Positions 13,188 to 58,458 of a DNA stretch of 64,000 nucleotides are shown here, piece by piece. A program made the translations under genes and the position numbers. Location of the stretch: sequence record OM386667.1; one strand, given 5' to 3'. Source of the DNA: Escherichia phage vB_EcoM_REC. The first letter of the stretch is position 1. The number at the start of each line of letters is the position of its first letter. The notes beneath the pieces are model-generated. The model was not told the DNA's origin, searched no databases, and saw only the letters and a program-made list of their open reading frames with translations.

Positions 13188-13189
13188 TA

Positions 13190-39144: not shown

Positions 39145-42100
39145 TCAATGACAGGATGCCCAGGAATTACCCACGTCATATCCGGCAGTAAGCTGAACGT
39201 TAAGATTGTAAAATTCTCCAGCCTTAGTAACAGCTAAAGCAGCAAGTTCACCTGCCCGACTATAAGCTGTAAACCATCCACCTTTGGGAGATTCATGAAT
39301 GTTAGCCCAAATTTGCCCTGTCTCTTTTTCCTTATTATGCTTCCATTCTTCAACTTTAGCAAGGCATTCTTTATCAATTTTCTTTTGTTCTTCAGGATCG
39401 TCTACTTTCTTCCAACCTAATGATTCAGGTGAAAACCATTTGAATTCTACAAGGTTACGAGAAACTTCAAGCTGGGCTTCATCGTGGTATGCAATCATTT
39501 GTTGCACGAAGTCTTTATTCTTCCAGTCATCTTTAAAGAAGTCAACACTTAGTCCTTCTTCTTCGATCATATCGTCATAAATAACCATTGCACGTTTAGC
39601 ACAGATAACCCCACCACTTTGGAACAGAGAGTTAAGAATCGCGTGAGCAGAACGAGTAGGAACCTTACGACCGTCAATACCCAAAACATACTGTTTACCA
39701 GTCTTAACCCAGAAATCGTTTAAACGTTCTTTAAGACGCGCCAGTGGGAATGCAGCTTCCCAGAAAGCATCGAACACCAGTTGCCCTGTAAACTTATCGC
39801 TACCAATTGTTTTAGCAACCTTGTCGGCTTGTGCACCATAGGTAATACCATACTTAACAGATTTAGCAGGACTACGTTCAAATTTACGTCCAATAGTTTC
39901 AGTGATACGTTTTGCCATCATGGTATGAACATCGTTAGGCTTCTCTAACAAGAGAGCGTTACAGTATTCATGAGGCTCCGGTTCGTAGCGCCAACAGTTT
40001 CCTGTGATGGTAATGCAGTCTTTCTGACGCATGACCCACGTACCAAGTTCTGTTTGTGGACACCAAACATCCTCTACACCCCACTCTTCAATAGTCAAAC
40101 TTTGAACAGGAATGTGAGAGCGGTTAGCCAATGTTACCACTTTTACTTTCTGCTCTTTTGTATTGAAAGCTACAGAGATATTGCCTCCATGCACCAGGTA
40201 CGAGGCAGTTAAAGCTGCTTCAAAAAGTTCACCTGGGTTCTGCGCCCAACGCCAAACAGGTTTTTGTTTATGTTCATGCCAGTAACCATCTGCAATCAAG
40301 AAACCTTCCAAGAAAGCTACACGCTCGGCATGAGACATATTAACTACACGCTCTACCCACGGAACATCCCATTTACCTTGTTGAACAGAAGTTAAACTAT
40401 TTACCTGATCTTGTTCCATGTTAAATGGAGCATTACAAATAATATTATCTCCTGTGCAAAGCTCGGCAGTTGTTCTGACTTTAGGCACATAAGTATTCCC
40501 TTTACTACGGGTATTAACATACCAACGGTGATCTGCTGTTGCACGGTAAGTGTGTGATTTCCCTTTAATCTCAAACGTCTTACTATTTTTATAGAAGACC
40601 TTACCTTTTACTTTAGTCCATTCTTTCAGACCTGTTTCAGCATTGTACCCTAAAATCTCATCCCCTTCCTTCAGGTCGTGATATCCTACCCAACCTTTAC
40701 GAGTCAAAGCTTGAGCATCCATCGGCACACAGTAATGTGATTCAATTTTTGCTTCCAAAGAGTCGAAGTCGTAGCCGATCTGGAAGTATTTAGGAACCTC
40801 TACACCAAACAAGTTACGCATCTCCCATCCAAACAAAGATGTGACACGAGGAATATTAGCTACAGATCTATGTTTCATACGAGAGGTTGCAGCATCACAT
40901 GTAGCGGCTGGTGTAGGAATACGCCCATCCGCCCTTACTGCGGCTAAGAAACCTTTATCGTATTCTTGATCTTCTTCATCTTCTTCCCAATCAGCACCGC
41001 CACCTAAAATAGAGTTCCTACGATGCTTATACGTTAAGTATTCTACAATCTGTGTAGCATAAGGAAATTTCTCACCCAAAGCTTGCAGGTTAGGACAAAT
41101 TTCTTTTTCCTGACCTTTGGTAAAACATGGGTTAGTCAATACTTTAAGACCGCGACCTTTACCTTTTGCTATACGCTCTTGAATCTTCCTTTCCAAAGTT
41201 TCCGGTGTGCACTCCAGATGATCACAACGATCCTGACAAAAATTAGAAGATAGAGTTTGCTCAACGTAAGCTCTAATACCTTTCTGAAGTTCTTCCTCGC
41301 TCTTTTTAATTTTGGTGCCAGATTTAAGCGTCAAGTCTTTATCTTTATATTCAGACGGTACCCAACCTAATCCTACGAGCCAGTTTTTAATATGGGTTGT
41401 ATCGTTCAATGTTGCAGGGATGTTAGGATCACATAGAGGCTCATCTGCTGCAACTGGCAGTTTCCACTCTTTCCCCCACATAACTAACCACCAATCGCCA
41501 TCCCTCTCTTCCAAATGACCATCATGTTTCTTAGCAAAATTGATCATATGGTTAGTTGGCTCTAAGTTCTTTTTAATTTGCAACTTAGGTGGAATAAAAG
41601 CCTTAAGATAACCTTTTGTTGCTGGTTTAGGTGGCAAAATAGGCTCAACGAGTAAACGAAGACGCTCCATTTCTGCATCCAAAAAAGCAAGGTTCTCTTC
41701 TGCTTGCTTCATGTTAAAAGCAAACCCACGGTGTTCCTGGCGTGTAATAATGTCTGCTACACGTTGTTCAAGTTCAAATGGACCTTCCCATTTATCATAA
41801 TCGCCCCATTCTTCCATAAGGTAATTATATACGCTCGTATTGGCTTTGTTGTCATAGATACAGTAATAAAGCATATCCGCAGCAAAAGTCTTAAATCGAT
41901 CTTCTTCTGGAATCTCTTTACGGAAATCTATTTTTACATCACCACCTGCTTTTCGAGAAAGTGCTGCCAAGCTATGTCCTGATTTGCCCTCAATCTTTCG
42001 ATCTGGGTTTAACACTTTACTCAAAATCAAGGAGTCAATAAGTTTTACCTTATTTTTGCCCCACGTATTATATTTAACACTGTAATCTAATCCATAAAAC

Positions 42101-42477
42101 AGTTTTGTAGCCAACCAGTCGTAGTTGATACCGTTGTGAGCCACAGCCATTTCAACCAGATATTCAGGCTTGTCTTTAAAATAACCTTCATGATTAATAA
42201 AATCTGGGAAATCTTTTAGTTGAAAATGTGTGTAATCTTGCGCCACATACTCTTTAAGAACATATGTGTATTTACCATCTGACTCTTCATAAGGACGCCC
42301 ATCAAAGATGTATTTAGGGCCATCGTGGAAAGCTACTATTTCTCCTGTTTCATGGTTCTCTAAGACAATACAGTGCATTTGAAATGTGTCTTTGAGACGA
42401 TAAGGACTAGCTAAATAATCAATAGTGTCATTATTCAACAATCCGTTTGCTTCAATATCCCATGTAAACTTACTCAC
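39145..42477 (-). CDS. family-A DNA polymerase with 3'-5' exonuclease domain, interrupted by an intein-like element
   Basis: 1110 aa; exonuclease motif DIEANGL; motif A-like YDFDSLEAKIESHY; motif B-like KSVKYGITYGAQ; motif C-like HDEAQLEV; about 245 aa insertion after motif A. Confidence 0.85.
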   Translation of the reverse strand: MSKFTWDIEANGLLNNDTIDYLASPYRLKDTFQMHCIVLENHETGEIVAFHDGPKYIFDGRPYEESDGKYTYVLKEYVAQDYTHFQLKDFPDFINHEGYFKDKPEYLVEMAVAHNGINYDWLATKLFYGLDYSVKYNTWGKNKVKLIDSLILSKVLNPDRKIEGKSGHSLAALSRKAGGDVKIDFRKEIPEEDRFKTFAADMLYYCIYDNKANTSVYNYLMEEWGDYDKWEGPFELEQRVADIITRQEHRGFAFNMKQAEENLAFLDAEMERLRLLVEPILPPKPATKGYLKAFIPPKLQIKKNLEPTNHMINFAKKHDGHLEERDGDWWLVMWGKEWKLPVAADEPLCDPNIPATLNDTTHIKNWLVGLGWVPSEYKDKDLTLKSGTKIKKSEEELQKGIRAYVEQTLSSNFCQDRCDHLECTPETLERKIQERIAKGKGRGLKVLTNPCFTKGQEKEICPNLQALGEKFPYATQIVEYLTYKHRRNSILGGGADWEEDEEDQEYDKGFLAAVRADGRIPTPAATCDAATSRMKHRSVANIPRVTSLFGWEMRNLFGVEVPKYFQIGYDFDSLEAKIESHYCVPMDAQALTRKGWVGYHDLKEGDEILGYNAETGLKEWTKVKGKVFYKNSKTFEIKGKSHTYRATADHRWYVNTRSKGNTYVPKVRTTAELCTGDNIICNAPFNMEQDQVNSLTSVQQGKWDVPWVERVVNMSHAERVAFLEGFLIADGYWHEHKQKPVWRWAQNPGELFEAALTASYLVHGGNISVAFNTKEQKVKVVTLANRSHIPVQSLTIEEWGVEDVWCPQTELGTWVMRQKDCITITGNCWRYEPEPHEYCNALLLEKPNDVHTMMAKRITETIGRKFERSPAKSVKYGITYGAQADKVAKTIGSDKFTGQLVFDAFWEAAFPLARLKERLNDFWVKTGKQYVLGIDGRKVPTRSAHAILNSLFQSGGVICAKRAMVIYDDMIEEEGLSVDFFKDDWKNKDFVQQMIAYHDEAQLEVSRNLVEFKWFSPESLGWKKVDDPEEQKKIDKECLAKVEEWKHNKEKETGQIWANIHESPKGGWFTAYSRAGELAALAVTKAGEFYNLNVQLTAGYDVGNSWASCH
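39997..40731 (-). other. intein-like (Hint domain) insertion within DNA polymerase
   Basis: Starts with Cys after ESHY; TxxDH block (TADHRW); LAGLIDADG-like LEGFLIADGYW; ends ...ITITGN followed by Cys (CWRY). Confidence 0.55.
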
Positions 42478-43271
42478 TATTCCTCCTTTCTAATGTTCTC
42501 CAGAACCCACTGAAGTTCTTTTAAACTTAAACTTCTTACTCCCGCAGTTTTACTAGCTTCAGCTTTAAGTAACGGGTAAGCCTCAATGATACGCGTTTTA
42601 AGATCAGAAGTCAAGGCTTTTAAAAAATAGGTAGATGCTTCAGATAAAGAATCTTCTTCTGATAACACTCTACCTGCACTTGCTCCCGCTCTCCTAACAG
42701 CTATATCGTAGTCTTTACTGTTACCTAATACGAATAGTCGATTCTCTCCTAAAACAACGGGAGAACGCTTCTCGTTGCGTTTAATCCATACCTGGAATAC
42801 ACAAGGAACATCCCAAGGTTCTCCATGAAGAATAAAAGATCCTTTTGGACATTCTTCTTCGTAAAGAAGATGCATATGGGGATTTAGTTTGTGTGCAAAA
42901 AAGATTTTTTGAAATGTGCGAGGCAAGATAAAACAAATACCACCTTCGTTATCCAGCATTTCAGCACAATGGTTAAAGAATTTAATGGCAAGACTAGCAT
43001 TTTTTCCAAATGGAGGATTACCGACAAAAGCAGTTACACTACCAACAGACTCAACAGATTGAGCTAAAAAATCTGCCTCAATACAATCTTCAAACTTAGG
43101 GTCAATATCAAAAGAAGTTATGTTTTTAAAACAAGAAGAGAAAGCTCCTTCTCCCGCAGATGGTTCTACGTAGTTAGCTTCCTCTCCAAAAATTTCTTTG
43201 ATCTTATCACATAAGAACCCCGCATAAGCGGGGTTAGTGTAATATTGATCAAGTGTGTTCAACTTGCTCAA
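42477..43271 (-). CDS. putative N6-adenine DNA methyltransferase
   Basis: 264 aa; motifs DQYYTNP, EPSAGEGAF (AdoMet-binding) and GNPPFG (catalytic NPPF). Confidence 0.55.
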   Translation of the reverse strand: MSKLNTLDQYYTNPAYAGFLCDKIKEIFGEEANYVEPSAGEGAFSSCFKNITSFDIDPKFEDCIEADFLAQSVESVGSVTAFVGNPPFGKNASLAIKFFNHCAEMLDNEGGICFILPRTFQKIFFAHKLNPHMHLLYEEECPKGSFILHGEPWDVPCVFQVWIKRNEKRSPVVLGENRLFVLGNSKDYDIAVRRAGASAGRVLSEEDSLSEASTYFLKALTSDLKTRIIEAYPLLKAEASKTAGVRSLSLKELQWVLENIRKEE

Positions 43272-43791: not shown

Positions 43792-43807
43792 AAGGGCCGA
43801 AGCCCTT
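43792..43807 (-). terminator. rho-independent terminator after primase-helicase gene
   Basis: Stem AAGGGC/GCCCTT with loop; minus-strand reading followed by TTATTAAAAA. Confidence 0.5.
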
Positions 43808-45584
43808 AATAGTTGCTATCCGTAGGCAAATTAGCAGGATTGTTGAAATACTGCTCTTTGTCATGCAGAGTTGCAGTTCTAATGTCATAGTAAAACTGCC
43901 CTGCCGGACCAGTTTCCGAGAACTCACGGTTTTTTAGGATAAAGCAATGAGTCGTATTGCGTTCTACAGGGTCTTCAGCGGCTTTATCTCGTTCCAAAGC
44001 CAAGGTAATACCAGCACCTTTAGCCAAGAAACTACTACCCATTGCATCGTCCTCTGTTAAGTGTTCATTGCCACCATTAGCCGATTTCTTAACGTGTGAG
44101 ATGACGATAATAGTTATAGCATACTCTTTCATAATGCGCTTCAACCATGTTGCTAACTCTTCTTGGGCTTGAACATCCATACCAGAAAGCAAATCAGAAT
44201 AAGGGTCGATAACAAGAATTGTTACTCCAAAATAGATGATCATCTCCAAAACTTTTTCTTTGATAGACTCCACATCTGCTCCACGATCATCACATACATA
44301 AAAACGTGGTGATCCATCTTCTCTTTCGTAAAAATCTAGGATTTTTTCTTTATTCTCTTCCAAGATTTGAAATTTCTCTTCCGGTGTTTTCCTGTGTAGA
44401 GGAATATGCAGGAACGAGGACAACAGGTTACGAGAATATTTCTTATAAGTTGCTTCCAAGGACAGGATACCTAGGGTATGTTCTGGGTGCGCAACAATAA
44501 TATGTTTGGTGATCTCGTTCACCATCAAAGTTTTACCGATACTGGTCTTTGCCAGGATGACTGTAATCTCTTCCTCTACTAAACCACCACCCAGCATGTT
44601 TGCAGCTACACGCATAAAAGGAGGCAAGGTAATCATCTTGGATTCCAAGCATTCTAATGCAGCTTCATACAAGACATTAGAAGCATAAACACCTGCTGGG
44701 GTGTATAGACGAGCACTCCAAAAAGCTTTTACGAAATCTTTTGCACGACCTTCTTCCAGATACTGATTGGCATCCTTAAGATCCATCTGCATACGGTAGA
44801 CTTTGTTACGAGGCAGCACCTTAACAATATTTTCAAATGCCTCATTACCTGCTTTATCATTATCCATGCAAACAATAATCTTCTTAAATTTTTCAAAGAA
44901 AGGATATTGTGCCTGAACTTGTTTATACATACTGGTTTCACCAGTTGTGCCACTAACTACTGCTGGAAGTTCATACTTGTTGTCCAAGTTTTCAGATAGC
45001 ATTTGATAAGCTGCCAGAGCATCGTGTTCACCACCTGTAATTACCACAGTATGAGAACGGTCTGCAAAACGAATTTGTCCAAAAAGATCTACATCTTTAC
45101 CTACTTGACCAATAGGTTTACTGAAATCTTTAGGATGAATACGACGCTTAAAACCAACCAATTCTTTACCGATAGTAGTCGGATATAAACAACTTTCTAC
45201 TACCATCTGATCCCCTTCCTGACGGTATTCATAACGAACACCATAGAAAGATGAAACTTTTTCTTTAATGCCTCGATAACCACGTGGGTTGGTTGATGTT
45301 TCTTGAACAATTTTACGATGAATCTGTTTATTAAATTCCGAACCCACAATCTCCTCCTCTTCTTCTAAAACTTCACCATTTTCTCGTAACCATTCTACGC
45401 TAGGAATAGTGTATTCACACGCAAAGCACTTAGCACCTTTATGCTCTCCATTAGAATCTAATCCATAAACCATCAGGTTATTACGAGAGCGATCCTTGCC
45501 ATTTTTCATGCAGCGCGGACAACCTGTATGCCCTTCCTTGCTAAGATCAACATCAAATCCATATTTAGTTATAATGTGCGACAC
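43806..45584 (-). CDS. DNA primase-helicase (T7 gp4-like bifunctional)
   Basis: 592 aa; N-terminal zinc ribbon CPRC...CFAC; TOPRIM-like VVITGGEHDALAAY; helicase Walker A AKTSIGKT and Walker B VIDPYSDLL. Confidence 0.8.
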   Translation of the reverse strand: MSHIITKYGFDVDLSKEGHTGCPRCMKNGKDRSRNNLMVYGLDSNGEHKGAKCFACEYTIPSVEWLRENGEVLEEEEEIVGSEFNKQIHRKIVQETSTNPRGYRGIKEKVSSFYGVRYEYRQEGDQMVVESCLYPTTIGKELVGFKRRIHPKDFSKPIGQVGKDVDLFGQIRFADRSHTVVITGGEHDALAAYQMLSENLDNKYELPAVVSGTTGETSMYKQVQAQYPFFEKFKKIIVCMDNDKAGNEAFENIVKVLPRNKVYRMQMDLKDANQYLEEGRAKDFVKAFWSARLYTPAGVYASNVLYEAALECLESKMITLPPFMRVAANMLGGGLVEEEITVILAKTSIGKTLMVNEITKHIIVAHPEHTLGILSLEATYKKYSRNLLSSFLHIPLHRKTPEEKFQILEENKEKILDFYEREDGSPRFYVCDDRGADVESIKEKVLEMIIYFGVTILVIDPYSDLLSGMDVQAQEELATWLKRIMKEYAITIIVISHVKKSANGGNEHLTEDDAMGSSFLAKGAGITLALERDKAAEDPVERNTTHCFILKNREFSETGPAGQFYYDIRTATLHDKEQYFNNPANLPTDSNY

Positions 45585-45596
45585 TTTGTTCTCCTG

Positions 45597-45875
45597 TTAA
45601 AATGGTTCGTTAGTCTCCATCATATATTCTGCTTCTAGTTCTTCCATATGCTTTCTAAATTGGAAAGCAATTTCTGCTACAGTTACATTTAAATCTTTTT
45701 CAAAAACTTCTGTAGAGCCTTCATAAAAACGAATACCGTCAATTAAAAGCCCTCCGTGGTAATCCCAATCACTTTCACGAGAAAGCGGGTTAGGCTCTTC
45801 ATAATAGTAATCCACCTCCACAACTAAGGCTTTCCCGTTACGAGTGATGTATTCAAAATCAAAAGTGTTAATCAT
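45597..45875 (-). CDS. hypothetical protein
   Basis: 92 aa, start overlaps upstream stop. Confidence 0.4.
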   Translation of the reverse strand: MINTFDFEYITRNGKALVVEVDYYYEEPNPLSRESDWDYHGGLLIDGIRFYEGSTEVFEKDLNVTVAEIAFQFRKHMEELEAEYMMETNEPF

Positions 45876-46819
45876 TATAGCTCCTCAAATAAAAGTCTAC
45901 GACGCTCATTCAACACATCAATGTGATAATGAGTCCTGACATACTTAGCTAATGCTAATCCTTTCTCCATGCAAACATCGGGAGCACTTAATAAGTATTC
46001 CGTAATATCTTTCCACTCGGAAGGTGTTTCAGCAAAGAATAACAAATCTTTAAACTCTTGTGTATGATAATTCTCACGAGGAGAACAGATCAAAGGTAAA
46101 CCCTTAGCACCTGCCTCAAGAATTTTAAGATTGCTTTTTGCATTATTAAACACGTTATCAATCAATGGCGCAAGACTGATTTGATGACCATCGTAAGATT
46201 CCATGTAGTTGGCATATGGTCTTACACCTTCATAAACACAAGTTGGTGCTACATTTTCTCTGATTACAGACCATTCACGACTACTTAAAACTTCAGAATC
46301 CCTACGAAAACCACATATTGTAAGATCTTTACCAAAATCGGGCAAGATAGCCAAATCTTGTTTATGTGTTTCACTTCCAGCCCAGACTAATGGAGTTTTG
46401 GAGTAGCGATCACGGGTCAACACAAATTGACCTTCATCATAAGGAAGTCCATTAGGGATTATGTGCACATTATCATTGTATTGTGAAAGTTCAACTTGCA
46501 AGGCAGGTGTCGTAGTTGTAACAAGATCACTGTGCTCTAAAAACCATTTTAAATGTTCACGAATACCTGATTCAAAAATACCTTCTAACATGTGTCCTTT
46601 TGGAATAACTAAAGAGTCATCCAAATCCATAACCATTTTAAAGCCTAGGTTTTTAAGGGCTAAAAAGCCCTCTTTACCTTTTGTTGGCACTCCGTTAAAA
46701 ACGAAAACGTTGTATTTAGGTTGTGAAGAGAACTGCCTTGAGTAAGGCAGCACTACCCTATGGAAATCGCAGACACTATAATTGATTCCGTTACGATTGT
46801 CAAGAATTATTTGTCCCAT
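45875..46819 (-). CDS. putative glycosyltransferase (GT-B-like), paralog 1
   Basis: 314 aa; C-terminal KILEAGAKGLPLICS motif; clear paralog of the adjacent gene. Confidence 0.4.
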   Translation of the reverse strand: MGQIILDNRNGINYSVCDFHRVVLPYSRQFSSQPKYNVFVFNGVPTKGKEGFLALKNLGFKMVMDLDDSLVIPKGHMLEGIFESGIREHLKWFLEHSDLVTTTTPALQVELSQYNDNVHIIPNGLPYDEGQFVLTRDRYSKTPLVWAGSETHKQDLAILPDFGKDLTICGFRRDSEVLSSREWSVIRENVAPTCVYEGVRPYANYMESYDGHQISLAPLIDNVFNNAKSNLKILEAGAKGLPLICSPRENYHTQEFKDLLFFAETPSEWKDITEYLLSAPDVCMEKGLALAKYVRTHYHIDVLNERRRLLFEEL

Positions 46820-46826
46820 ACTTCAC

Positions 46827-47813
46827 CTACAAACTTTCAATAACCTGGCGTCGCAACTCGTTTGCATCTGCCAGATTATAATGTGTTCGAACATGTTCAG
46901 CCAAGAACAAGCCACGATCTTCCCGATAGTTTGGATTGCGAAGAAGCTTAACAATTTCGTAATGCCATTCTGCTTTATTCTCTGCGTAAGCAACAGCGCG
47001 AGCATCTACAGGGTTAAAATAAGGTAATACCTTAGAACAAACAATCGGAATACCTTTTGCTCCAGCTTCCAGGATTTTGAGATTACTTTTACAATTATTA
47101 AAATCATTGTCTACCAAAGGAGCTATAGCAATAGCATGACTTTCGTAAACACTCATGTAATTATCTAAATCTTTTACAGCAGCTTTATATTTGGCATTTG
47201 GTAAATTTCTGCGAATCTTAATCCACTCTTGTCCCGTGATGCTTTGTGATGCTTCATATCCCGCAATAGTAAGAAGTTCATCATCGAAAGTATTAGAGAC
47301 TAGTCGTAAATCTGGTTCGTGACTAGCACCGCCAGCCCATACAACAGGGGTACCGGATGAACGATCATTTGACAAAGTGAATTGTCCGCTATCAAAAGGA
47401 AGTGCATTTCGGATCACAACGACATTTCTATTTAAGTGACGGATCTTATATGCCAAATATTCTGTAGTCACAATAACCACATCAGCAAGCTTAACCATAG
47501 CTACAATAGCATGAGTGTTTGACTCGTATAGACTTGCTAAATAATGCTCTGGATTAAGTTGGTAAAAATCATCTAAATCTACAACAACCTTAACACCTTG
47601 ACGTTTCAAAGATAAAACGTATTCTGCACCTTTAGAGTGGATACGGTTAAACACAACAATATCTTTCTTAGGTTGAAAATTATTGTTGTTAAATGGCATA
47701 ACAATACGATGATAGTCACAACCGCTATGAGGTTTTGCATCAATTTTTAGTTTAGACCATTTTTTATTTGACATGTGCCAGTGCCTCCTCATAGGAAATT
47801 CGGATTTTCCCAT
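46827..47813 (-). CDS. putative glycosyltransferase (GT-B-like), paralog 2
   Basis: 328 aa; KILEAGAKGIPIVCS; VVWAGGASHEPDL; aligns along its length with 45875-46819. Confidence 0.4.
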   Translation of the reverse strand: MGKSEFPMRRHWHMSNKKWSKLKIDAKPHSGCDYHRIVMPFNNNNFQPKKDIVVFNRIHSKGAEYVLSLKRQGVKVVVDLDDFYQLNPEHYLASLYESNTHAIVAMVKLADVVIVTTEYLAYKIRHLNRNVVVIRNALPFDSGQFTLSNDRSSGTPVVWAGGASHEPDLRLVSNTFDDELLTIAGYEASQSITGQEWIKIRRNLPNAKYKAAVKDLDNYMSVYESHAIAIAPLVDNDFNNCKSNLKILEAGAKGIPIVCSKVLPYFNPVDARAVAYAENKAEWHYEIVKLLRNPNYREDRGLFLAEHVRTHYNLADANELRRQVIESL

Positions 47814-48447
47814 TTTTAATATCCTCTAAAGATGCTTTATATTCTTCCCAGTTAATCCCGATAGCAGCTTCTTTCTCTTCTTTTGTCAGATTAGCAAAAG
47901 GCATAGGGTTGTTTCCAAAAACATCGTCTGGGTGGATATAAGCCATGATACGAAGTGGACAAGGTGTTGCCTGAATACCATGATTCAAACCAGCAGCTTG
48001 CAAACGGTGTCCCCATTCAGCATCTTCAAAACCATAGCCGTGAGTGTAAGGACGGAAATAACCCATCTTCTCAACAACGGCACGAGAATACATTGCAAAT
48101 TGACACATTGCAAGTTCCCAGAGAATAACTTCTCCTTTGCTTCCAACAACTTTATCTTTGAAATACTCCGGCATACCAAAGAAATCCCATCCTCCAGAGA
48201 CAGCTTGATCTACAAAGTATGTTTCCCATCCCTCCATGACTGGGTAGCAATCGTCGTCAAAAATAAACCAATAATCATAACCTTCTTCATAAAACTGGTG
48301 CATAAGTTCATTCCTGGCATAAGCTACACCTTTACGATCTGGATCGTTGAATACTCGAAAATCTGCACGTGGATCTGTTACAAGGTAGTCTTTAAGTGGA
48401 CGGACACCTACAGTGATAACACCCACTCCAATTTTAATATTTTCCAT
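47764..48447 (-). CDS. putative glycosyltransferase (GT-A-like, DxD motif)
   Basis: 227 aa; YWFIFDDDCYP (DxD) and FGMPEYF; Rossmann-like N-terminus. Confidence 0.45.
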   Translation of the reverse strand: MENIKIGVGVITVGVRPLKDYLVTDPRADFRVFNDPDRKGVAYARNELMHQFYEEGYDYWFIFDDDCYPVMEGWETYFVDQAVSGGWDFFGMPEYFKDKVVGSKGEVILWELAMCQFAMYSRAVVEKMGYFRPYTHGYGFEDAEWGHRLQAAGLNHGIQATPCPLRIMAYIHPDDVFGNNPMPFANLTKEEKEAAIGINWEEYKASLEDIKNGKIRISYEEALAHVK

Positions 48448-48455
48448 TTTCTCTC

Positions 48456-49019
48456 CTAAATAGTTTTACTGTGATCATGACAGTGTAATAAATGATGTAT
48501 AGACCGTTGAGGATTTGTTTGACCTAATCTGTAAATGTGAAACAGATACATTCCCCGCATCAATCCTAACCTCTTTCCTTTTTCATGTAAAGTGCGAGAG
48601 AAAATTAAGTCGAATTGGATAGATTTTTCTTCGAAAGGAATTTCATTCCACAATGATTTTCTAAAAAGCAAGAAGAAACCTGCCAGAGGTGTTCCGAAAG
48701 GAACTTCTTCAACACTCACTTTATGATATTCTCTTGCAATCTTAGCATATTCTATATGGTTTAGAATATCTGGATCATCGTTAATTTGGTTAGAGAAAAG
48801 CTGATAACCACTGCCTAACCTGTTACAAGTTGCACCTATTACATCAAAAGGCGGGTTTGACATAACAAGCTCTTCAAGCATAGATGGTTGATCAGGTAGG
48901 AGGAACATTGTATCGGTATCTCTTAAACACACCCAACTATCATCTGGAAGAACGGCAATGGCTTTATTGATAGCCTTGCCGATATTTCCTGTCAGATAGG
49001 GAGTAATATAATAAATCAT
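48456..49019 (-). CDS. putative glycosyltransferase-like protein (GT-A-like)
   Basis: 187 aa; WVCLRDTDTMFL (DxD-like). Confidence 0.35.
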   Translation of the reverse strand: MIYYITPYLTGNIGKAINKAIAVLPDDSWVCLRDTDTMFLLPDQPSMLEELVMSNPPFDVIGATCNRLGSGYQLFSNQINDDPDILNHIEYAKIAREYHKVSVEEVPFGTPLAGFFLLFRKSLWNEIPFEEKSIQFDLIFSRTLHEKGKRLGLMRGMYLFHIYRLGQTNPQRSIHHLLHCHDHSKTI

Positions 49020-49035
49020 TCTCCCCTCCGTTATA

Positions 49036-49227
49036 TTAACTGTCAGCTACAATCCCACGTTTAATCATTTCTTGTTGAATCTGGATCACACGATCTCGTG
49101 CTTCCATATATTCTTTAAAAGATTCTTGGAGATGGTCACGAGCTACATCCCGTAGTTTAATCAGCTTGTCGTTTGTCACTTCTTGAAGAGAGATTTCGCC
49201 AGTTTCATTGGTCCCAAGCGTTTTCAT
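49036..49227 (-). CDS. hypothetical small protein
   Basis: 63 aa ORF. Confidence 0.3.
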   Translation of the reverse strand: MKTLGTNETGEISLQEVTNDKLIKLRDVARDHLQESFKEYMEARDRVIQIQQEMIKRGIVADS

Positions 49228-49483
49228 TTACAACCTCCTTAATAGCTACTGCACAGTTCTTACAAATACATTGACCTTTGTTCTTAGAAATTTCAATGTA
49301 AGGTTCATTTTCGTTTTCTCCGCGTCGTGAGTCGTATATTACTGTATTGAAGCAGACAACGCAAATGTTTTTAATAACGACATATTTTTGCACTTTCTGT
49401 TTAGTGCGAAAATTGACTTCAATGACTTCTCCCATCAATGAATCTCCCCTAAAATGTTGTTTTGAGACATTACTGCGGAGCAT
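49205..49483 (-). CDS. hypothetical Cys-rich small protein
   Basis: CVVCF...CICKNC zinc-ribbon-like; true start may be internal. Confidence 0.3.
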   Translation of the reverse strand: MLRSNVSKQHFRGDSLMGEVIEVNFRTKQKVQKYVVIKNICVVCFNTVIYDSRRGENENEPYIEISKNKGQCICKNCAVAIKEVVNENAWDQ

Positions 49484-50341: not shown

Positions 50342-50944
50342 TTATGGACATTCATACCATTCTTTTTTACCACCGAAGGCCATCACCACATCACAAATAT
50401 CCAGACCAGCTTTACCTACACCATATGCTTTCAGCTTCCATTCCCCATCTTCACGAACCAAGGAAGCCACGTGGCAGATTGTGTTGCCAGCTACTTCAGG
50501 AGCCAGGAAGTCAAAATCCAGAATTTCCACATTGCGCTCGGAGTCGAAGATTTTAAGCATACCTTCAGAAGCATGACCAAAACGTTTCAGACCTGTATCA
50601 TCATCAATGGTCAGAACAAAGGCAATCTCTTGTGCATCAGGAGAGATTTTAGCCAAAGTAATATCAATCTGCTCCATGCTGCCAGTTCCATCACGAACAT
50701 CGTCACCAGCGAAGGTAGAACGTTCAGGATCAAACTTGTTAGCATAGCAAACCAGATGACGTGCAGACAGCATTTCAGGATTACCAGCGGCATTGTGACG
50801 ACAAACCAGTGCACTTACATCCAGATCCAGTTTAGAATCAGATTTCCAAGAGAATTCCAGGCGCAGTTCTTTCAGAGCCGGAGCAACTTTCTTCAGGGAA
50901 ATTTTTTCGCTAGAGCCTTTTTTCAGGGAAATTTTATCAGTCAT
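50342..50944 (-). CDS. terD: TerD-family stress protein
   Basis: 200 aa; N-terminal ISLKKG...ISLKK; DLDVSALV; calcium-binding-like GDDVRDGTGSMEQ; C-terminal EWKLKAYG; overall pattern matches TerD domain. Confidence 0.8.
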   Translation of the reverse strand: MTDKISLKKGSSEKISLKKVAPALKELRLEFSWKSDSKLDLDVSALVCRHNAAGNPEMLSARHLVCYANKFDPERSTFAGDDVRDGTGSMEQIDITLAKISPDAQEIAFVLTIDDDTGLKRFGHASEGMLKIFDSERNVEILDFDFLAPEVAGNTICHVASLVREDGEWKLKAYGVGKAGLDICDVVMAFGGKKEWYECP

Positions 50945-50959
50945 CTTTTGTCTCCTCTA

Positions 50960-51229
50960 TTATTTAAGTGTAATACCAGTTACAGTCAATTCTACTTCCA
51001 AAAGCTTAGATGTGTTTTGGATTGATACTAATTGTGCATGATGGTTTAGTTCTACAGCAGAATAATCATTTTCCCCATCATCTACTTTTAAATAAACAAT
51101 GATTTCACTAAGGTCTAAACCATTTTCGTCAAATGCATTTTCATAGACGAAAGTATCTCCTACATCCAAATCTTTAATGGTAAGGCATCGTTTATTTACT
51201 TTTTGCTCATCAATTTCGAAGTTTAACAC
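50960..51229 (-). CDS. small hypothetical protein, paralog A (DLDVGxTF...ITLK family)
   Basis: GTG start with AGGAGGAAG RBS; paralogous to 52251-52529. Confidence 0.45.
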   Translation of the reverse strand: MLNFEIDEQKVNKRCLTIKDLDVGDTFVYENAFDENGLDLSEIIVYLKVDDGENDYSAVELNHHAQLVSIQNTSKLLEVELTVTGITLK

Positions 51230-51458
51230 TTCTTCCTCCTAATGTTATCTCCGGTTTGTATATACGAAGAATTATAGCATTTTCATTTTCTTTGTCAACC
51301 CATTCTTCATAATCGGGCCATACATGAATCTCCACTCTACTTACAATATCTTCCATTCGCACAGTCCCAATGAAATACTCTTTGAGACTGCGCATAATGA
51401 AAGCTTCTCTCTCGCGCCAATAATTTTCTATGACTTGAGAGGCAAGCTCGTCGATCAT
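51210..51458 (-). CDS. hypothetical protein
   Basis: 82 aa ORF. Confidence 0.35.
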   Translation of the reverse strand: MIDELASQVIENYWREREAFIMRSLKEYFIGTVRMEDIVSRVEIHVWPDYEEWVDKENENAIILRIYKPEITLGGRSVKLRN

Positions 51459-52249
51459 TTTTTAGCACCTACTTTAACAACCCACTCTCCGAACTCTTCA
51501 GATAAGAGTTTGTCATAAAGCTCTGAATCTGTCAAGTCTAAATCTTTAATGCCAATAAAACCAACATTATCATAAGCATTTGCCAGTTCTTTCAGGAACC
51601 CAAACTTCTCATTACCAACGCCAACCATGAACCAATAAATAGGTTTATTCTTATTCTCTTCAATAAGACGACGAACAGCACTAGGATCACCATTCTCACC
51701 ATCCGTCTGGAAGAATACAACACCAGGGGTAACGTCAGCACCTGGTTCAGATACAGCTACAACTTTTTCACGCTCTACAGACACTGTTTCAGTTTTACCA
51801 AGCAGACGATTAAAGAAGCCTTTCTTTGGAGCCTCCTCTTGTACCACTTGTTTAGTGGTAATATATTTGGTAACAGTGCCAAAATACTCACCGTAGATAT
51901 CTGCCATTACAGGGGCGTAATTTGTTCCACCTCCGATACGAACATTACGCATACATTTACCAACATAGTCATCGTAAACGTCTGCTGTTGCTGGAGTAAG
52001 CTCTTGGGAACTCGTATTGAAGGCCCACATATCAATTTGTTGATTATCGTCGAACAGCATACCAAAAGGAAGCAGTTTACCTACAAAATCACTCACTACC
52101 CCACTAGAATATAGACCATGCATACTACCAGAAATATCTAGAGCACATGCTACACGAAGAACAATCTTACCTTCATTCAGGTTCTTATTCTTTTTCAGAG
52201 AGAAAGCAAGGTTTTCTTGACGTTTTTTCAGGCTGATTTTCTCGGACAT
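51455..52249 (-). CDS. vWA-domain protein (TerF/TerY-like) with TerD-like N-terminal ISLKK motif
   Basis: 264 aa; MIDAS-like motif ALDISGSM; N-terminus MSEKISLKK mirrors TerD N-terminus MTDKISLKK. Confidence 0.65.
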   Translation of the reverse strand: MSEKISLKKRQENLAFSLKKNKNLNEGKIVLRVACALDISGSMHGLYSSGVVSDFVGKLLPFGMLFDDNQQIDMWAFNTSSQELTPATADVYDDYVGKCMRNVRIGGGTNYAPVMADIYGEYFGTVTKYITTKQVVQEEAPKKGFFNRLLGKTETVSVEREKVVAVSEPGADVTPGVVFFQTDGENGDPSAVRRLIEENKNKPIYWFMVGVGNEKFGFLKELANAYDNVGFIGIKDLDLTDSELYDKLLSEEFGEWVVKVGAKK

Positions 52250-52250
52250 A

Positions 52251-52529
52251 TTATTTCTCCTTCTTAAGTGTAATATTGGTAACTTCTAAATCTACTTCCA
52301 CCATATTTGTATCTGGTGGGATGCAATGAGTATAGCCTCGTTGTGCTAGTGATCCATTAATACAAATCGCACTGTTTGTGGAATTTTTAATGAACACCAA
52401 GTTACGGTAGGTATCCAACCCTGCGTCTTCATAGGCATCATAATACATGAATGTTGCCCCTACGTCAAGATCTTCGAAAGCAATAGGTAAATCTTGACTT
52501 TTTTCTTCTTGAATATTGAATCTAAACAC
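52251..52529 (-). CDS. small hypothetical protein, paralog B (DLDVGxTF...ITLK family)
   Basis: ORF 52251-52595 trimmed to the GTG at 52529 (GAGGAGG RBS); from there it aligns with paralog A. Confidence 0.45.
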   Translation of the reverse strand: MFRFNIQEEKSQDLPIAFEDLDVGATFMYYDAYEDAGLDTYRNLVFIKNSTNSAICINGSLAQRGYTHCIPPDTNMVEVDLEVTNITLKKEK

Positions 52530-53085
52530 GCATACCTCCTCTACCAATTTTGAAGCCCAAATCGTAAGCTTCCTTAGTGATCTTTTGTAACTCACTTATA
52601 GGAAGTGTTACAAGAGGATCATCTTCTTCAATTTCCATCTTGTCATCTTCTGTTTCAATGAGAGTATTATGCACTTTGTGATAAGGGTTGTCAACACGTT
52701 TAAACTTATTCTTTTCTGTGCTGAAAAAACAATCTGGATCTTCTTCACCATCACCCCAACCTTGGTTAGGATCTCCGTCAGATTGTTCTGTAGGGATTTC
52801 ACCTGTAAAGTACTCTTCCAGCACCATAGCGATACCGTCCCTTGGATTTGAGGAATGCATCAAATCACAAACCTTACTCCAATCCATAGCCCATTCAAAT
52901 CGTTCACGAACACCATTTTCATCCTCCTTTCCAGAGAAAACACAACCATAACTATCATAGTTCCCATACATCTCTTCAATAACAACACCGTCCTTCAAAA
53001 GAAAGAGGTAGCAAGGTGATCCGTCGAAAGAAGTAGAAAGGGCAGCTTTGCCCGATTCTTTGCACAAAAAGCTAAAACAACCCAT
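52522..53085 (-). CDS. hypothetical acidic protein
   Basis: 187 aa ORF. Confidence 0.4.
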   Translation of the reverse strand: MGCFSFLCKESGKAALSTSFDGSPCYLFLLKDGVVIEEMYGNYDSYGCVFSGKEDENGVRERFEWAMDWSKVCDLMHSSNPRDGIAMVLEEYFTGEIPTEQSDGDPNQGWGDGEEDPDCFFSTEKNKFKRVDNPYHKVHNTLIETEDDKMEIEEDDPLVTLPISELQKITKEAYDLGFKIGRGGMRV

Positions 53086-53483
53086 TACAAACCCTCCTTC
53101 AGATTATCAAGAGCTACAGTGGTTTCACAAAATTCTCCATAAGCTTTATGATGTTCCAGAAAAGCTTCGGGTCCACCCCAGTCATTATCTTGTGTATTCC
53201 AGCCATCAATAAAAGCATCTTCAATGATTGTGATCAGTTCCTGTCGAGTCAGCGTAATGGTATCAGGTTTCTGCGTAGTTTCCACACGGAACCCTGGTTC
53301 TTCATAAAAACCTTTAGTTACAATGGACTCTAACTCTTCTGCATCACAGAGGAAGTAGCCACAAAGATAACACCAACCGTCACCATCTTTCATTACTTCA
53401 TAAACTTCACCACTTGCTAACTTAGTGAAAAGAGTAGGGTCTGTTACTGTAAGTTTTAAAAGAATACCTGTTGGATTATACAT
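53085..53483 (-). CDS. hypothetical protein
   Basis: 132 aa ORF, GAGGAGGAAG RBS. Confidence 0.4.
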   Translation of the reverse strand: MYNPTGILLKLTVTDPTLFTKLASGEVYEVMKDGDGWCYLCGYFLCDAEELESIVTKGFYEEPGFRVETTQKPDTITLTRQELITIIEDAFIDGWNTQDNDWGGPEAFLEHHKAYGEFCETTVALDNLKEGL

Positions 53484-53649
53484 CTTCTTCCTCCTCTAAA
53501 ATATGGAACCCGTAATTACAATAATCCTGAAAGGTTTCGTGTGCAAGATCTTCTATATCCTCTTGAGACATATCATCTTCAATTTCGATATCCACAACCT
53601 CATTGCATCCACACCAAGCAGTTTCAATATTCACTCGTAATATTTTCAT
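53476..53649 (-). CDS. small acidic hypothetical protein (57 aa, below ORF-track cutoff)
   Basis: ATG at 53649 overlaps the upstream TAA (TAATG coupling); translation MKILRVNIETAWCGCNEVVDIEIEDD...LEEEEDV. Confidence 0.3.
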   Translation of the reverse strand: MKILRVNIETAWCGCNEVVDIEIEDDMSQEDIEDLAHETFQDYCNYGFHILEEEEDV

Positions 53650-53849
53650 TACTCCTCCTCCTCCTCATTGAAGTCAATATCTGCAAGGAGTTCGAATTTA
53701 CGGAAGTTACGACAACCTTCATAAATATAACAATCACGACAAACTGCTAGAACACTTGGGGGATATATGCCTCCCATCGGTGCGAATCGTTTTTCGTCAT
53801 CATAACGGACACCAATGTCTTCATCAATTATATAGATACGGATTCTCAT
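53649..53849 (-). CDS. small hypothetical protein
   Basis: 66 aa; CRDC...C; ends NEEEEE. Confidence 0.3.
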   Translation of the reverse strand: MRIRIYIIDEDIGVRYDDEKRFAPMGGIYPPSVLAVCRDCYIYEGCRNFRKFELLADIDFNEEEEE

Positions 53850-54958
53850 TTACCAAGCCCTCGTTTCACAGCAGCTACCATCCCGTCTTCCAGAGATTGA
53901 ACTTCATTAATATAATCAACACGAGCAGCACGGGCTTCCGTATTGATGCGGTTAGTTTCTTCCAACATCTTAACCAAGTTTTCCTGATCGTGACGCAGAG
54001 TTTCAATATCCAACACTTGACGGTTAGCCAGTGCTGCTGCTTCGATCTGATTCTGTGTGGCAAGATCGCTACCCAGTTTAATTGCCAGGTTAAATTCATC
54101 AAGAACGTTATTCTGCGTCTCTGCTGCTTTCATTTGACGTAAGCTCTCGATATACATTGAGAAGTTAGCAGAGTAAGCAGGAATAACATTATTTACTATG
54201 TTACGCGCAGATCGCATTAAGCTTGCAGAAACTTTTTGCATACCTTGTACACGCGGTCCCATTTGGACACACAGTAGGCGCAATGCTTTTAAATCTGCAA
54301 TACGAATCTCCAGAAGATCCAAAGTATCTCGGATCACTTGTCGCTGTTCTACTGCATCTTCTGGAAGAGCAGCCAAAGCTTGTTCTTCTTTTTCATAGGT
54401 TGCTGTTAGAAGCTGCATATCTCGGTTCAAACTTGCAGCATATTGTCCAATAGCTTGATGTAGCTTTTCAAGATATACCAAGGAATCTTCTTCTTTGCGA
54501 ATATCCATTTGAAGGTTCTTTACCAACTCTTCAATACGGTTATTAACATTATCAAACTCCCCGAACAGGTCTTCTTTCATACCCATAACTTTTTTAATGA
54601 GTTTAGTAATACCCTTACTTTGTTTAATAGAGTTTGGATCAAGTTGTTTTGCCTGTTTAATCAAAGCTGTGAGTCGTTCACTCATCTGATCGCCTTGATT
54701 ACTACGTTGATGTTTTAACACCTCGGCATTCAAGGAACGCAAGGTTGTTCCTGCCTCTGCCCCAATCTCTTCAATCTCTTGTCGGGTCATAGAAGGCAAA
54801 ACTGGAACTTCTTGCGGTGCCGCTGGTGCATAAACAGGACTGGCATCTAACACGCTTGGAGCGAATACAGATTTACTTGCATCTGTTGTTGCAGCAAATA
54901 CGCTCATTTCAGGCTTCTTCTGACCACCAGTAGCTGCTTTTAAAAATGGACTTGTCAT
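53846..54958 (-). CDS. telA: TelA-like toxic-anion-resistance family protein
   Basis: 370 aa, largely helical; length and composition fit the TelA/KlaA family; sits in a TerD/TerC neighbourhood. Confidence 0.6.
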   Translation of the reverse strand: MTSPFLKAATGGQKKPEMSVFAATTDASKSVFAPSVLDASPVYAPAAPQEVPVLPSMTRQEIEEIGAEAGTTLRSLNAEVLKHQRSNQGDQMSERLTALIKQAKQLDPNSIKQSKGITKLIKKVMGMKEDLFGEFDNVNNRIEELVKNLQMDIRKEEDSLVYLEKLHQAIGQYAASLNRDMQLLTATYEKEEQALAALPEDAVEQRQVIRDTLDLLEIRIADLKALRLLCVQMGPRVQGMQKVSASLMRSARNIVNNVIPAYSANFSMYIESLRQMKAAETQNNVLDEFNLAIKLGSDLATQNQIEAAALANRQVLDIETLRHDQENLVKMLEETNRINTEARAARVDYINEVQSLEDGMVAAVKRGLGK

Positions 54959-55545
54959 TCTTCATTCTCCTCTTCTGCATCTCTTATATATGGTGAAACA
55001 CCGTACTCTTTAGCTACTTTAACCCAATCGTCCCATTTATACAACCATAATTTTCCTTCGGTCCCTTCTTTATCTGATTTCAACCACATATTAGGTTGCT
55101 TACCTGGGTACATGCGATTAGGTTTACGATTATAACCTCTAACACATCTTGTCGCAAACCTATCTACCAGAACAAGAACATATTTATATTCGTGGTTCAA
55201 CGGCTCTTTGGAAGTGGCTTTAGGATTAGCCCCTAATTCTGCTGCCAGTTTTTGCCAATGAGCACCGTGCCTACTAAACTTACCCATACAACCATCAATA
55301 GCATGAGCAATTTCGTGCTTCATTGTATCCACGATCATATCTCTTGTGGAGTTCTTATGCAAGTGCCAATTTACAACAACAATTTTATCTCGGTAGTTGC
55401 ACCAACCGAAAGAGTTATTCACTTTGTTTCTAACACAAGCTTTATATCCTGCTTCACGTAACATGTTGTAGTAAACAGGAAAATCTTCTTTTATTTCCTG
55501 CATCACTTCCCACCACAAGAGTTGCAAGTCTCTCTCGGTATGCAT
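54955..55545 (-). CDS. SprT-like zinc metalloprotease domain protein
   Basis: 196 aa; HEIAHAIDG (HExxH) then SRHGAHWQKLAAELG, typical of SprT-like domain. Confidence 0.6.
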   Translation of the reverse strand: MHTERDLQLLWWEVMQEIKEDFPVYYNMLREAGYKACVRNKVNNSFGWCNYRDKIVVVNWHLHKNSTRDMIVDTMKHEIAHAIDGCMGKFSRHGAHWQKLAAELGANPKATSKEPLNHEYKYVLVLVDRFATRCVRGYNRKPNRMYPGKQPNMWLKSDKEGTEGKLWLYKWDDWVKVAKEYGVSPYIRDAEEENEE

Positions 55546-55548
55546 AAC

Positions 55549-56142
55549 TTACACCTTAAAAGCGAAATGCGTGGTCGTGGCTTCAAAATCAGGGCCAGAT
55601 AAACTTGCACTGAAATCTGAAATATTTGTAATTAAAAAGCTTTTATGCATACCTAACACAGCCACGCTTTCAATATCTTCTACTAACATTTCAATCATGT
55701 TAGAAACATGGCTGAACGTATAGTTTTGTTTTTTGATGGTGTAGAAAGAAAGACTCCCACCTGCTGTATAAGATACCTCTTCAAAATCTTTAATCGTATA
55801 TTGTGTGCCATCAGTAAAGAAAATGGTAGCTTTATTAGTAGCACGTTTCTTGTTTTTTGGTCCTTTTTTACGTTTACTGCGAGTAGGCAAACCGTTTGGG
55901 AACACCATAGCTACAAATTCTTCAGGAGAAACCTCCTTACCGAAATCATAACCGTAAGAAACAGCGTCTATAAACTCGTCGTCTTCATTTTTAAAATAAT
56001 GAAAATAGGGCCAATTTGAGAGATTATCGAGCATCTTATGCTCATCCACAGCAGAGAACGTATCCCTCAAAGCACGTGTGATTTGCAAAGCATTAGGCAA
56101 ACTTTTAACACCTGTAATGGAAGTACGAATAGAAATTGTCAT
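55549..56142 (-). CDS. hypothetical protein
   Basis: 197 aa ORF. Confidence 0.4.
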   Translation of the reverse strand: MTISIRTSITGVKSLPNALQITRALRDTFSAVDEHKMLDNLSNWPYFHYFKNEDDEFIDAVSYGYDFGKEVSPEEFVAMVFPNGLPTRSKRKKGPKNKKRATNKATIFFTDGTQYTIKDFEEVSYTAGGSLSFYTIKKQNYTFSHVSNMIEMLVEDIESVAVLGMHKSFLITNISDFSASLSGPDFEATTTHFAFKV

Positions 56143-56156
56143 TGTTTTTCTCCTTA

Positions 56157-57128: not shown

Positions 57129-57146
57129 AAGTCTCTCCTATAAAAT

Positions 57147-57164: not shown

Positions 57165-57170
57165 CATTTA

Positions 57171-58446: not shown

Positions 58447-58458
58447 ACTAATCTCCTC

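Follow-up and report, generated by a model that had tools for sequence, protein, structure and literature searches.

What do glycosyltransferases encoded beside the replication genes of a large virulent coliphage modify? This question is raised by a cluster of four genes, here called GT1 through GT4, at positions 45875-49019 of a 64,000-nucleotide stretch of DNA (hereafter the window) from Escherichia phage vB_EcoM_REC (sequence record OM386667.1). A first-pass annotation made from the sequence alone had led with the idea that the encoded enzymes glycosylate modified DNA bases to evade restriction, and had listed host surface polysaccharides and virion proteins as alternative substrates. That leading idea is not supported by the analysis reported here, and glycosylation of virion proteins now appears to be the best supported of the proposals.

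We tentatively favor the view that the cluster assembles a glycan with which virion proteins are decorated, in the manner of mycobacteriophages. GT1 through GT4 would constitute a soluble, cytoplasmic glycan-assembly cassette whose enzymes act in sequence during lytic growth to produce a short oligosaccharide of three to four sugars. L-rhamnose is a probable component of this chain, as the phage itself supplies RmlC and RmlD. The chain would most likely be attached to at least one structural protein of the virion, with the capsid, decoration protein, tail and tail fibers as candidates. We infer the sequential action, the rhamnose donor and, above all, the protein acceptor from the late and packaging-operon settings of homologous cassettes, the sugar-tailoring genes and the Che8 gp108-like glycosyltransferase found in their company, the rhamnose genes, the core-like conservation of the cluster, and the exclusion of DNA as the acceptor. 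Taken together, these observations make the reading our leading candidate, although one that we hold with reservation.

A conserved cluster of four glycosyltransferase genes

The four genes are separated by -11 to +8 nucleotides when the RefSeq-type start of GT2 is used; the GT2 open reading frame (ORF) is open upstream to position 47813, and its longest form encodes 328 amino acids. Over positions 45500-49300, the region is 100% identical to that of Escherichia phage vB_EcoM_ESCO37 (OM386659) and 98-99.9% identical to those of ~64 further Phapecoctavirus genomes (phAPEC8-like, Stephanstirmvirinae). An orthologous, syntenic four-gene cluster is also present in the phi92-like phages (Justusliebigvirus), whose carriers include phi92 (gp163-166) and the BASEL phages Bas60-62 (Bas62 is JohannJBalmer). 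Overall, the cluster is conserved across about 130 sequenced phages, which is far beyond chance. Amino acid identity between the two genera is 66-76% for the glycosyltransferases versus 70% for the primase-helicase and 74% for the polymerase, and conservation at this core-gene level suggests that the enzymes are under selection during lytic growth. RefSeq records of Phapecoctavirus already label all four genes ‘glycosyltransferase’, and thus the naming is not new. Our literature searches found no functional study of the cluster.

GT1 and GT2 share 41% identity (E 7e-77), and both match phrog_7162 (E 5e-145 for GT1; E 6.5e-149 for GT2, with the alignment beginning at residue 19). The remaining PHROG matches of the cluster are to phrog_2456 (E-78) and phrog_14179 (E-112). 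All four proteins are matched end to end by families annotated ‘glycosyltransferase’, whereas none of the four matched NCBIfam. In Pfam, GT1 scores 25.2 bits on PF13524 (Glyco_trans_1_2) against a cut-off of 25, with a weak N-terminal match to Glyco_transf_4, and GT2 reaches 22.6 and 20.7 bits on Glyco_trans_1_4 and Glyco_trans_1_2, both under the cut-offs. Members of the GT1/GT2 family carry PF00534, PF13692 and PF13524 (PF00534 and PF13692 in homologs P0031 and L006), the motifs CDYHR and KSNLKILEAGA are invariant in GT2, and a search of the PDB with a GT-B profile returned only TreT, as a weak match (E 0.08). GT1 and GT2 can be classed as GT-B-like from profiles only.

No sequence similarity is detectable between GT3 and GT4. 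The Pfam matches of GT3 (TAGT, Glyco_transf_7C and the GT2 family) are all sub-threshold, and GT4 has no Pfam match. In predicted structures (pLDDT 88.2 for GT3 and 93.4 for GT4), both proteins adopt a single Rossmann-like GT-A fold. Alignments reveal that D64-D65-D66 and E141-D142 are invariant across 17 GT3 homologs, and D34-x-D36 across 23 GT4 homologs. These models indicate that GT3 and GT4 are metal-dependent DxD enzymes of the GT-A type. Their structural neighbors are mostly glycosyltransferases of polysaccharides, teichoic acids and lipid-linked oligosaccharides, and include GlfT2, K4CP, TarP, WrtF, a PglI-like enzyme and SpsA. All four proteins lack a clear transmembrane helix, as evident by maximum 19-residue hydropathy values of 0.76-1.65. 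Separately, PDB sequence and profile searches with GT1, GT3, GT4 and the alignments returned ankyrin designs, a kinase and conglutin, none of which is meaningful.

The first-pass description of the cluster is therefore sound in its particulars. Four minus-strand ORFs fit the claimed span exactly, they lie between the primase-helicase gene and the Ter module, and they share the strand of the polymerase and of NrdG and NrdD, which lie downstream. Its division into two paralogous GT-B-like genes and two GT-A-like genes with DxD motifs agrees with the profiles and predicted folds, and the profile searches that it had named as a check return glycosyltransferase families for every protein (E-78 to E-149).

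Cassette homologs, rhamnose supply and a possible virion-protein acceptor

Homologs of the cluster are few and nearly all reside on phage contigs, the close ones sharing 35-51% identity. A three-gene version, in which homologs of GT4 and GT3 and a single GT-B gene follow in the same order, is carried by Klebsiella phage KP13-16 and related contigs, and by a prophage of Serratia sp. M24T3, where it lies between lysis genes and HNH, terminase and HK97-type head genes. A two-gene version (GT3 homolog and GT-B) occurs in other settings: in prophages from four Pseudomonas species it precedes TerL by 1.2-1.7 kb, in lambdoid contigs it separates the Q antiterminator from the lysis cassette, and in a P22-like contig it falls between TerL and the portal gene. 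In these temperate phages, the cassettes are co-directional and tightly packed inside late operons. The cassette is thus mobile and independent of replication genes. A blastn search of complete E. coli genomes with the lambdoid version gave no match.

These single-copy GT-B genes also bear on the origin of the pair in the window. GT2 is 46-51% identical to the single-copy GT-B proteins of other phages versus 36-40% for GT1, and it is always the closer of the two (51% to the Serratia prophage protein, 47% to that of KP13-16 and 44% to those of the Pseudomonas prophages). GT1 is therefore the diverged duplicate, and GT2 is the copy nearest to the single GT-B of the ancestral three-gene cassette.

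Some homologous records carry unexpected host names. Identity to E. coli Phapecoctavirus or Justusliebigvirus is 98-99% for records named for Campylobacter phages (A110a, B15, A150, A145), ‘Acinetobacter phage vB_AbaM_ABPW7’ and ‘Pseudomonas phage’. The same phage DNA also makes up two bacterial ‘MAG’ (metagenome-assembled genome) contigs, Proteobacteria JAEZZU010000159 and one of 501 bp assigned to Lysobacteraceae. Such records are probably due to host mislabeling or contamination.

More distant homologs likewise reside among head genes and keep company with genes for sugar tailoring. The GT-B homolog of Chitinophaga prophages occupies a position between TerL and an SPP1-type portal and adjoins a methyltransferase that matches the rhamnosyl O-methyltransferase family (PF04989). 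Between the portal and capsid genes of a 54-kb siphophage contig (L008) lies an island with homologs of both GT3 and GT4, an FkbM methyltransferase and a pair of GT2-family enzymes, one of which shares 36% identity with Che8 gp108 (E 3e-27). In Cellulophaga phage phi17:1, a protein with a GT4-like domain is encoded between the portal and the protease and capsid genes, and the ‘DNA methyltransferase’ next to the Cellulophaga gene proved to be a generic Methyltransf_24 protein. A Pfam scan of 127 neighbor ORFs from 14 dereplicated loci found that the commonest neighbors are the large terminase (6 loci), hexapeptide acyltransferases (5), and SPP1 portal, methyltransferases and GT2 enzymes (3 each), with DegT also among the sugar-tailoring genes and TET/JBP oxygenases accounting for two matches. 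The tailoring neighbors (the PF04989 protein, hexapeptide acyltransferases and DegT) point to a decorated glycan of the surface type.

A possible sugar donor is evident from genes beyond the window, which we examined through the annotation of the 98-99% identical phage iGC_PHA_EC001. This genome encodes RmlC (TIGR01221, 225.3 bits versus a cut-off of 155.75) and RmlD (TIGR01214, 238.1 versus 224.05), which catalyze the last two steps to dTDP-L-rhamnose. RmlC is present in 131 phage records at an identity of at least 60%, compared with ~127 for the cassette, and the two occur in essentially the same Stephanstirmvirinae set. Enterobacteria make dTDP-4-keto-6-deoxyglucose for the synthesis of enterobacterial common antigen (ECA), and therefore a phage that brings RmlC and RmlD can guarantee rhamnose in any such host. 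One of the four enzymes may thus be a rhamnosyltransferase that uses dTDP-rhamnose. The loci examined beyond the window (L004, from iGC_PHA_EC001, at 13084-14486, 20138-21754 and 26546-27271; L007 at 19735-20277) hold genes for RmlD, RmlC, a ThyX-like protein, an NT5C-like nucleotidase, a MazG-like pyrophosphohydrolase, a NADAR-domain protein and a Sir2-like protein.

The closest functional parallels for a virion-protein acceptor come from mycobacteriophages, in which Che8 gp108-110 and Corndog gp34-38 are reported to be virion glycosylation loci (Freeman et al., 2023, as cited in PMC12363180 and PMC11256854) and are described as homologous to each other (PMC12363180). As in these phages, the window encodes several clustered, soluble glycosyltransferases. 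The Corndog genes lie just upstream of the capsid protease, and homologous cassettes or islands related to the window genes similarly lie elsewhere in or beside head-morphogenesis genes; the L008 island joins GT3 and GT4 homologs with a gp108-like glycosyltransferase and a methyltransferase. The systems differ in that the window phage has a Gram-negative host, its cassette resides in a replication-strand block, its sequence similarity is marginal or absent, and here the genes alone are known. GT3 matches the N-terminal domain of Che8 gp108 weakly (E 4e-4, 23% identity), and no window glycosyltransferase matches gp109, gp110 or Corndog gp34-38. In a tblastn search, GT3 also matched ~360 mycobacteriophage records, which we rejected as generic GT-A similarity to the same gp108 domain.

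Giant viruses offer a second parallel (PBCV-1 A64R, Mimivirus R655/R699 and the L230-type collagen glycosyltransferase), as they too encode both GT-A enzymes and nucleotide-sugar enzymes, including rhamnose steps. However, the similarity is at the level of the fold only, the hosts of these viruses are eukaryotic, and the window phage has no lysyl hydroxylase. Within the window, a tail-spike or fiber protein (Table 1) has four collagen-like stretches of G-X-Y repeats, with GDK and GTN/GTD as frequent triplets, and we speculate that this fiber could be a glycan acceptor. The collagen-like protein BclA of Bacillus anthracis bears rhamnose-containing O-glycans.

DNA, host envelope and other possible acceptors

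If DNA were the acceptor, one enzyme would attach a sugar to a hydroxylated base and the others would extend it, thereby protecting the genome from nucleases. The cluster is co-oriented and tightly packed with the primase-helicase and polymerase genes, as might be expected from this proposal. For comparison with DNA-acting enzymes, we considered the T-even alpha- and beta-glucosyltransferases, the T2/T6 beta-glucosyl-hydroxymethylcytosine (HMC) alpha-glucosyltransferase (TAGT), and the clusters that depend on TET/5mYOX or ThyS (10.1101/2023.12.21.572611; PMC13326640). The window genes resemble such systems in placing GT-A and GT-B enzymes in series near replication or packaging genes, and multi-sugar DNA modifications made by several glycosyltransferases are known (mono- to trisaccharides in known systems). 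In addition, the R...DDD...ED pattern of GT3 resembles that described for phage DNA GT-A enzymes, and the protein is weakly matched by TAGT (E 1e-3) and by phrog_842 (beta-glucosyl-HMC alpha-glucosyltransferase, E 8e-6). However, its TAGT score (PF20691, 19.5 bits versus a cut-off of 27.5) is under threshold, and among its viral structural neighbors in BFVD a TAGT protein appears only at rank 45, so that we rejected GT3 as a member of this family. There is likewise no Pfam match (E <= 1) of the window proteins to the T4 alpha- and beta-glucosyltransferase families, and no PDB sequence match.

A few remote homologs do have an apparent link to DNA modification. In IMG/VR contigs L076 (4545-7969), L080, L089 and L095, a GT-B homolog (~33% identical to GT2) adjoins a TET/JBP oxygenase and a sigma-like protein of 170 amino acids in a cluster upstream of TerL. 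A full-length GT-A gene precedes TET in L076 and L080, whereas L089 has only a short partial GT-A match. The conserved 170-residue partner was considered as a GT4 relative and rejected, since its sequence resembles a sigma factor or a regulator of the helix-turn-helix type. The L076-type locus is likely a genuine cluster for the glycosylation of 5-hydroxymethylcytosine (or 5-hydroxymethyluracil) that uses a distant member of the GT-B family, and DNA may well be the substrate of some of the family's remote members. However, contigs with almost the same sequence around the GT-B gene retain that gene and the sigma-like protein but lack TET, and no TET/5mYOX dioxygenase neighbor is present in the window or in the rest of the genome.

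Published restriction data also speak to the question. These data are from Bas61 and Bas62, which carry the orthologous cluster with 66-76% identical glycosyltransferases. Maffei et al. describe the phi92-like BASEL phages as ‘exceptionally susceptible’ to restriction-modification systems and without effective protection; in their raw data, Bas61 and Bas62 plate at ~2.5e7 on the vector control and below detection on hosts with EcoRI, EcoRV or EcoP1. A bulky modification of any base genome-wide would block all three enzymes, and therefore this sensitivity argues against DNA glycosylation.

Moreover, O-glycosylation of DNA requires a hydroxylated base. The first-pass annotation had recognized no base-modifying enzyme in the window, and indeed none is visible; the search of the rest of the genome for hydroxymethylases and the like, which it had named as a check, is also negative. 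Specifically, the annotation of iGC_PHA_EC001 and Pfam scans of its nucleotide-metabolism genes and of 40 further unannotated proteins (114-462 amino acids) revealed no ThyA-type hydroxymethylase, TET/JBP or 2-oxoglutarate oxygenase, C5-methyltransferase or dNMP kinase, and tblastn with the two TET sequences likewise found no homolog. The proposal could draw on a divergent ThyX-like protein (31 bits versus an equivalog cut-off of 87.9) and on NT5C-like and MazG-like enzymes of unproven specificity. The gene annotated as ‘thymidylate synthase’ was considered as a hydroxymethylase and rejected, because it is of a divergent ThyX type rather than the ThyA type. As a separate observation, this 332-residue protein, whose score is far under the equivalog cut-off, is encoded next to the NT5C-like nucleotidase.

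The location next to replication genes, from which the DNA proposal began, does not hold for the cassette in general. No enzyme of the kinds listed above is encoded in the sequenced replication and nin regions of the lambdoid, P22-like and HK97-like prophages that carry it, and in the lambdoid contigs these regions have no base-modifying enzyme beyond an MT-A70 methylase. The window phage therefore departs from known DNA-glycosylation systems in lacking an enzyme for a hydroxylated base and in having relatives with the orthologous cluster that are fully sensitive to restriction. For its clade, we regard the restriction phenotype and the missing hydroxylase as decisive against a DNA acceptor; glycosylation of DNA bases as a defense against restriction, as first proposed, is accordingly quite improbable.

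The structural neighbors of GT3 and GT4 suggest another alternative, namely that the enzymes act at the cytoplasmic face on undecaprenyl- or lipid-linked precursors of lipopolysaccharide (LPS), O-antigen or ECA, and thereby remodel the host envelope. On this proposal, either receptor glycans would be altered, which would limit superinfection or the loss of progeny on debris, or precursors would be diverted during takeover. RmlC and RmlD could divert the ECA precursor dTDP-4-keto-6-deoxyglucose to rhamnose, and ECA and the LPS core are the receptors of Stephanstirmvirinae (Maffei et al.). A precedent is the S. aureus prophage enzyme TarP, which, like Gtr seroconversion systems, involves phage-borne glycosyltransferases that change surface glycans (a GT-A enzyme, as are GT3 and GT4). 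There is also a bacterial example within the GT-B family: on Ralstonia solanacearum megaplasmid CP023017 (L110, 6807-9951), a non-phage operon conserved in 14 Ralstonia megaplasmids encodes a classic GT4-type GT-B enzyme, a GT2-family enzyme and a 41% identical homolog of the window GT2, adjoining invasin-like and type III effector genes.

Unlike Gtr-type systems, however, the cluster includes no GtrA, GtrB or GtrV membrane protein, as evident by the absence of Pfam matches to the GtrA flippase, the GtrB bactoprenol glycosyltransferase and membrane serotype glycosyltransferases. Nor is there a flippase, polymerase or other membrane component, and the enzymes themselves have no clear transmembrane segments. 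Prophage envelope enzymes reside at lysogenic-conversion sites, whereas this cassette is found in the late and packaging operons of temperate phages and as a core-like conserved block in strictly virulent ones. Its hosts differ greatly in their envelopes (Enterobacterales, Pseudomonas and, for GT-B only, Bacteroidota), and envelope turnover is presumably slow relative to a lytic cycle. We therefore consider envelope remodeling unlikely.

The setting of the cluster in the window is also relevant to a third type of target, in which the sugar is placed on another cytoplasmic molecule. This could be a host protein modified for takeover or anti-defense, in the manner of bacterial glycosylating toxins or EarP, or a small molecule or nucleoside-like metabolite, possibly tied to the adjoining Ter module with its ComF-like phosphoribosyltransferase (PRTase), HAD enzyme and Macro domain. 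Soluble enzymes would suit this role, and early or middle expression is probable. Upstream of the run of genes from TerD through the glycosyltransferases to the primase, a site at 51298-51271 (minus strand) matches the sigma-70 consensus at 12 of 12 positions (TTGACA, a 16-nucleotide spacer and TATAAT, with an extended -10 TG), and a promoter and terminator scan found no terminator-like site on that strand between it and the glycosyltransferase genes and no clear operon boundaries within the cluster. However, the cassettes of the Serratia, Pseudomonas and lambdoid prophages travel without Ter genes, three or four glycosyltransferases in series suit an oligosaccharide better than a single regulatory sugar, and no candidate target was identified. 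This explanation seems to us as improbable as the one involving DNA.

Several points also weigh against the preferred virion-protein acceptor. The cassette in the window lies in a replication-strand block outside the structural module, and the terminase and head adjacency of its homologs is unspecific. DNA-glycosylation clusters that depend on TET or ThyS also occur near terminase and structural genes, and ~65% of related glycosyltransferase contigs have no base-modifying neighbor (Pyle et al., preprint 10.1101/2023.12.21.572611); adjacency to head genes alone therefore cannot separate virion from DNA glycosylation. The pairing of a remote GT-B homolog with TET/JBP in four IMG/VR contigs counts on the same side, as does the weak and generic nature of the similarity between GT3 and Che8 gp108. 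The Ralstonia operon implies that the GT-B family can serve ordinary cellular glycan synthesis, and the acceptor we propose for Stephanstirmvirinae virions is deduced from genes alone. In one study, none of ten phages, three of them E. coli myoviruses, stained for glycoprotein, but the genera are unstated and the result is not usable here.

Neighboring features and wider meaning

The features of the window discussed here are collected in Table 1. The small ORF that follows GT1 shares base 45875 with it, this base being both the start of the ORF and the end of GT1, which suggests translational coupling. Syntenic homologs follow the GT-B gene in JohannJBalmer (63% identity), L009 and L016, whereas no homolog is detectable downstream of the Serratia cassette, and the ORF has no Pfam match; its membership in the cassette is uncertain. 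The primase-helicase gene (43806-45584, minus) begins 12 nucleotides beyond it.

Table 1. Features of the window considered in this study
Feature	Position	Strand	Remarks
GT1, GT-B-like glycosyltransferase, 314 aa	45875-46819	minus	the more diverged of the two paralogs
GT2, GT-B-like glycosyltransferase, 315 aa	46827-47774	minus	RefSeq-type start
GT3, predicted GT-A (GT2-like) glycosyltransferase, 227 aa	47764-48447	minus	invariant DDD and YGxED motifs
GT4, predicted minimal GT-A glycosyltransferase, 187 aa	48456-49019	minus	invariant D-x-D (RDTDT); first cassette gene
Small conserved ORF, 92 aa	45597-45875	minus	phrog_4240, E 2e-32
DNA polymerase	39145-42477	minus	
TerD, vWA-TerF, TelA, TerC	50342-58145	minus	
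Tail-spike/fiber protein	31785-33809	plus	TSP1/Gp66 N-terminal domain; Pfam Collagen, E 4e-12

Several neighboring genes have unusual characteristics of their own. The DNA polymerase I ORF encodes 1110 amino acids, compared with 865 in the near-identical phage Mt1B1_P17. The extra ~245 residues begin with CVPMD, include the LAGLIDADG-like sequence FLEGFLIADG and end with ITGN followed by C, and look like an intein with a homing endonuclease. Because the polymerase of Klebsiella phage KP13-16 is 83% identical over its full 1107 amino acids, this phage must carry the insert as well. Directly downstream of the polymerase, a 264-residue protein with a GNPPFG motif (42477-43271, minus) matches phrog_5172 and, weakly, Eco57I-methylase and the DNA methyltransferase family phrog_799; it is probably an N6-adenine DNA methyltransferase, although most records call it hypothetical.

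On the other side of the cluster, a SleB-type cell-wall hydrolase (PF07486; 49721-50242, minus) is encoded three small ORFs upstream of GT4, within the replication-strand block. Its N-terminus resembles a signal peptide (MLIKNFVTVALLSLTAFTFTPVVAKA), and the genome has another annotated ‘endolysin’ elsewhere. The Ter module beyond it (50342-60422, minus) is complete, comprising TerD, a vWA-TerF-like protein, TelA, an SprT-like protein, TerC, Macro, a ComF-like PRTase (PF15610) and HAD. The same ‘nucleoside-like metabolite’ gene set has been predicted for bacterial ter operons; here it is present in a virulent phage.

The most specific form of our proposal, which is somewhat more doubtful than a virion-protein acceptor in general, is that Phapecoctavirus and phi92-like coliphages coat their virion proteins with a phage-made oligosaccharide that contains rhamnose, built by a mobile GT4-GT3-GT-B module that is also carried by temperate Serratia, Pseudomonas and lambdoid phages. 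The published restriction phenotype of the clade contradicts the default reading of glycosyltransferases beside replication genes as DNA-modification enzymes, and even if the acceptor were to prove to be the envelope or DNA, the locus would still caution against making that reading by default. If the proposal is correct, it would account for the carriage of RmlC and RmlD, and would provide a portable three-enzyme module for glyco-engineering in E. coli. Phapecoctavirus and phi92-like coliphages are widely used in therapeutic cocktails, and glycosylated virions would have a bearing on antibody neutralization, clearance, stability and possibly interactions with mucus or host surfaces. Among phages that infect Gram-negative bacteria, such a phage-encoded system for glycosylating virions would be the first, and it would extend the mycobacteriophage ‘glycan shield’ to large virulent coliphages, which phage-therapy collections commonly include.

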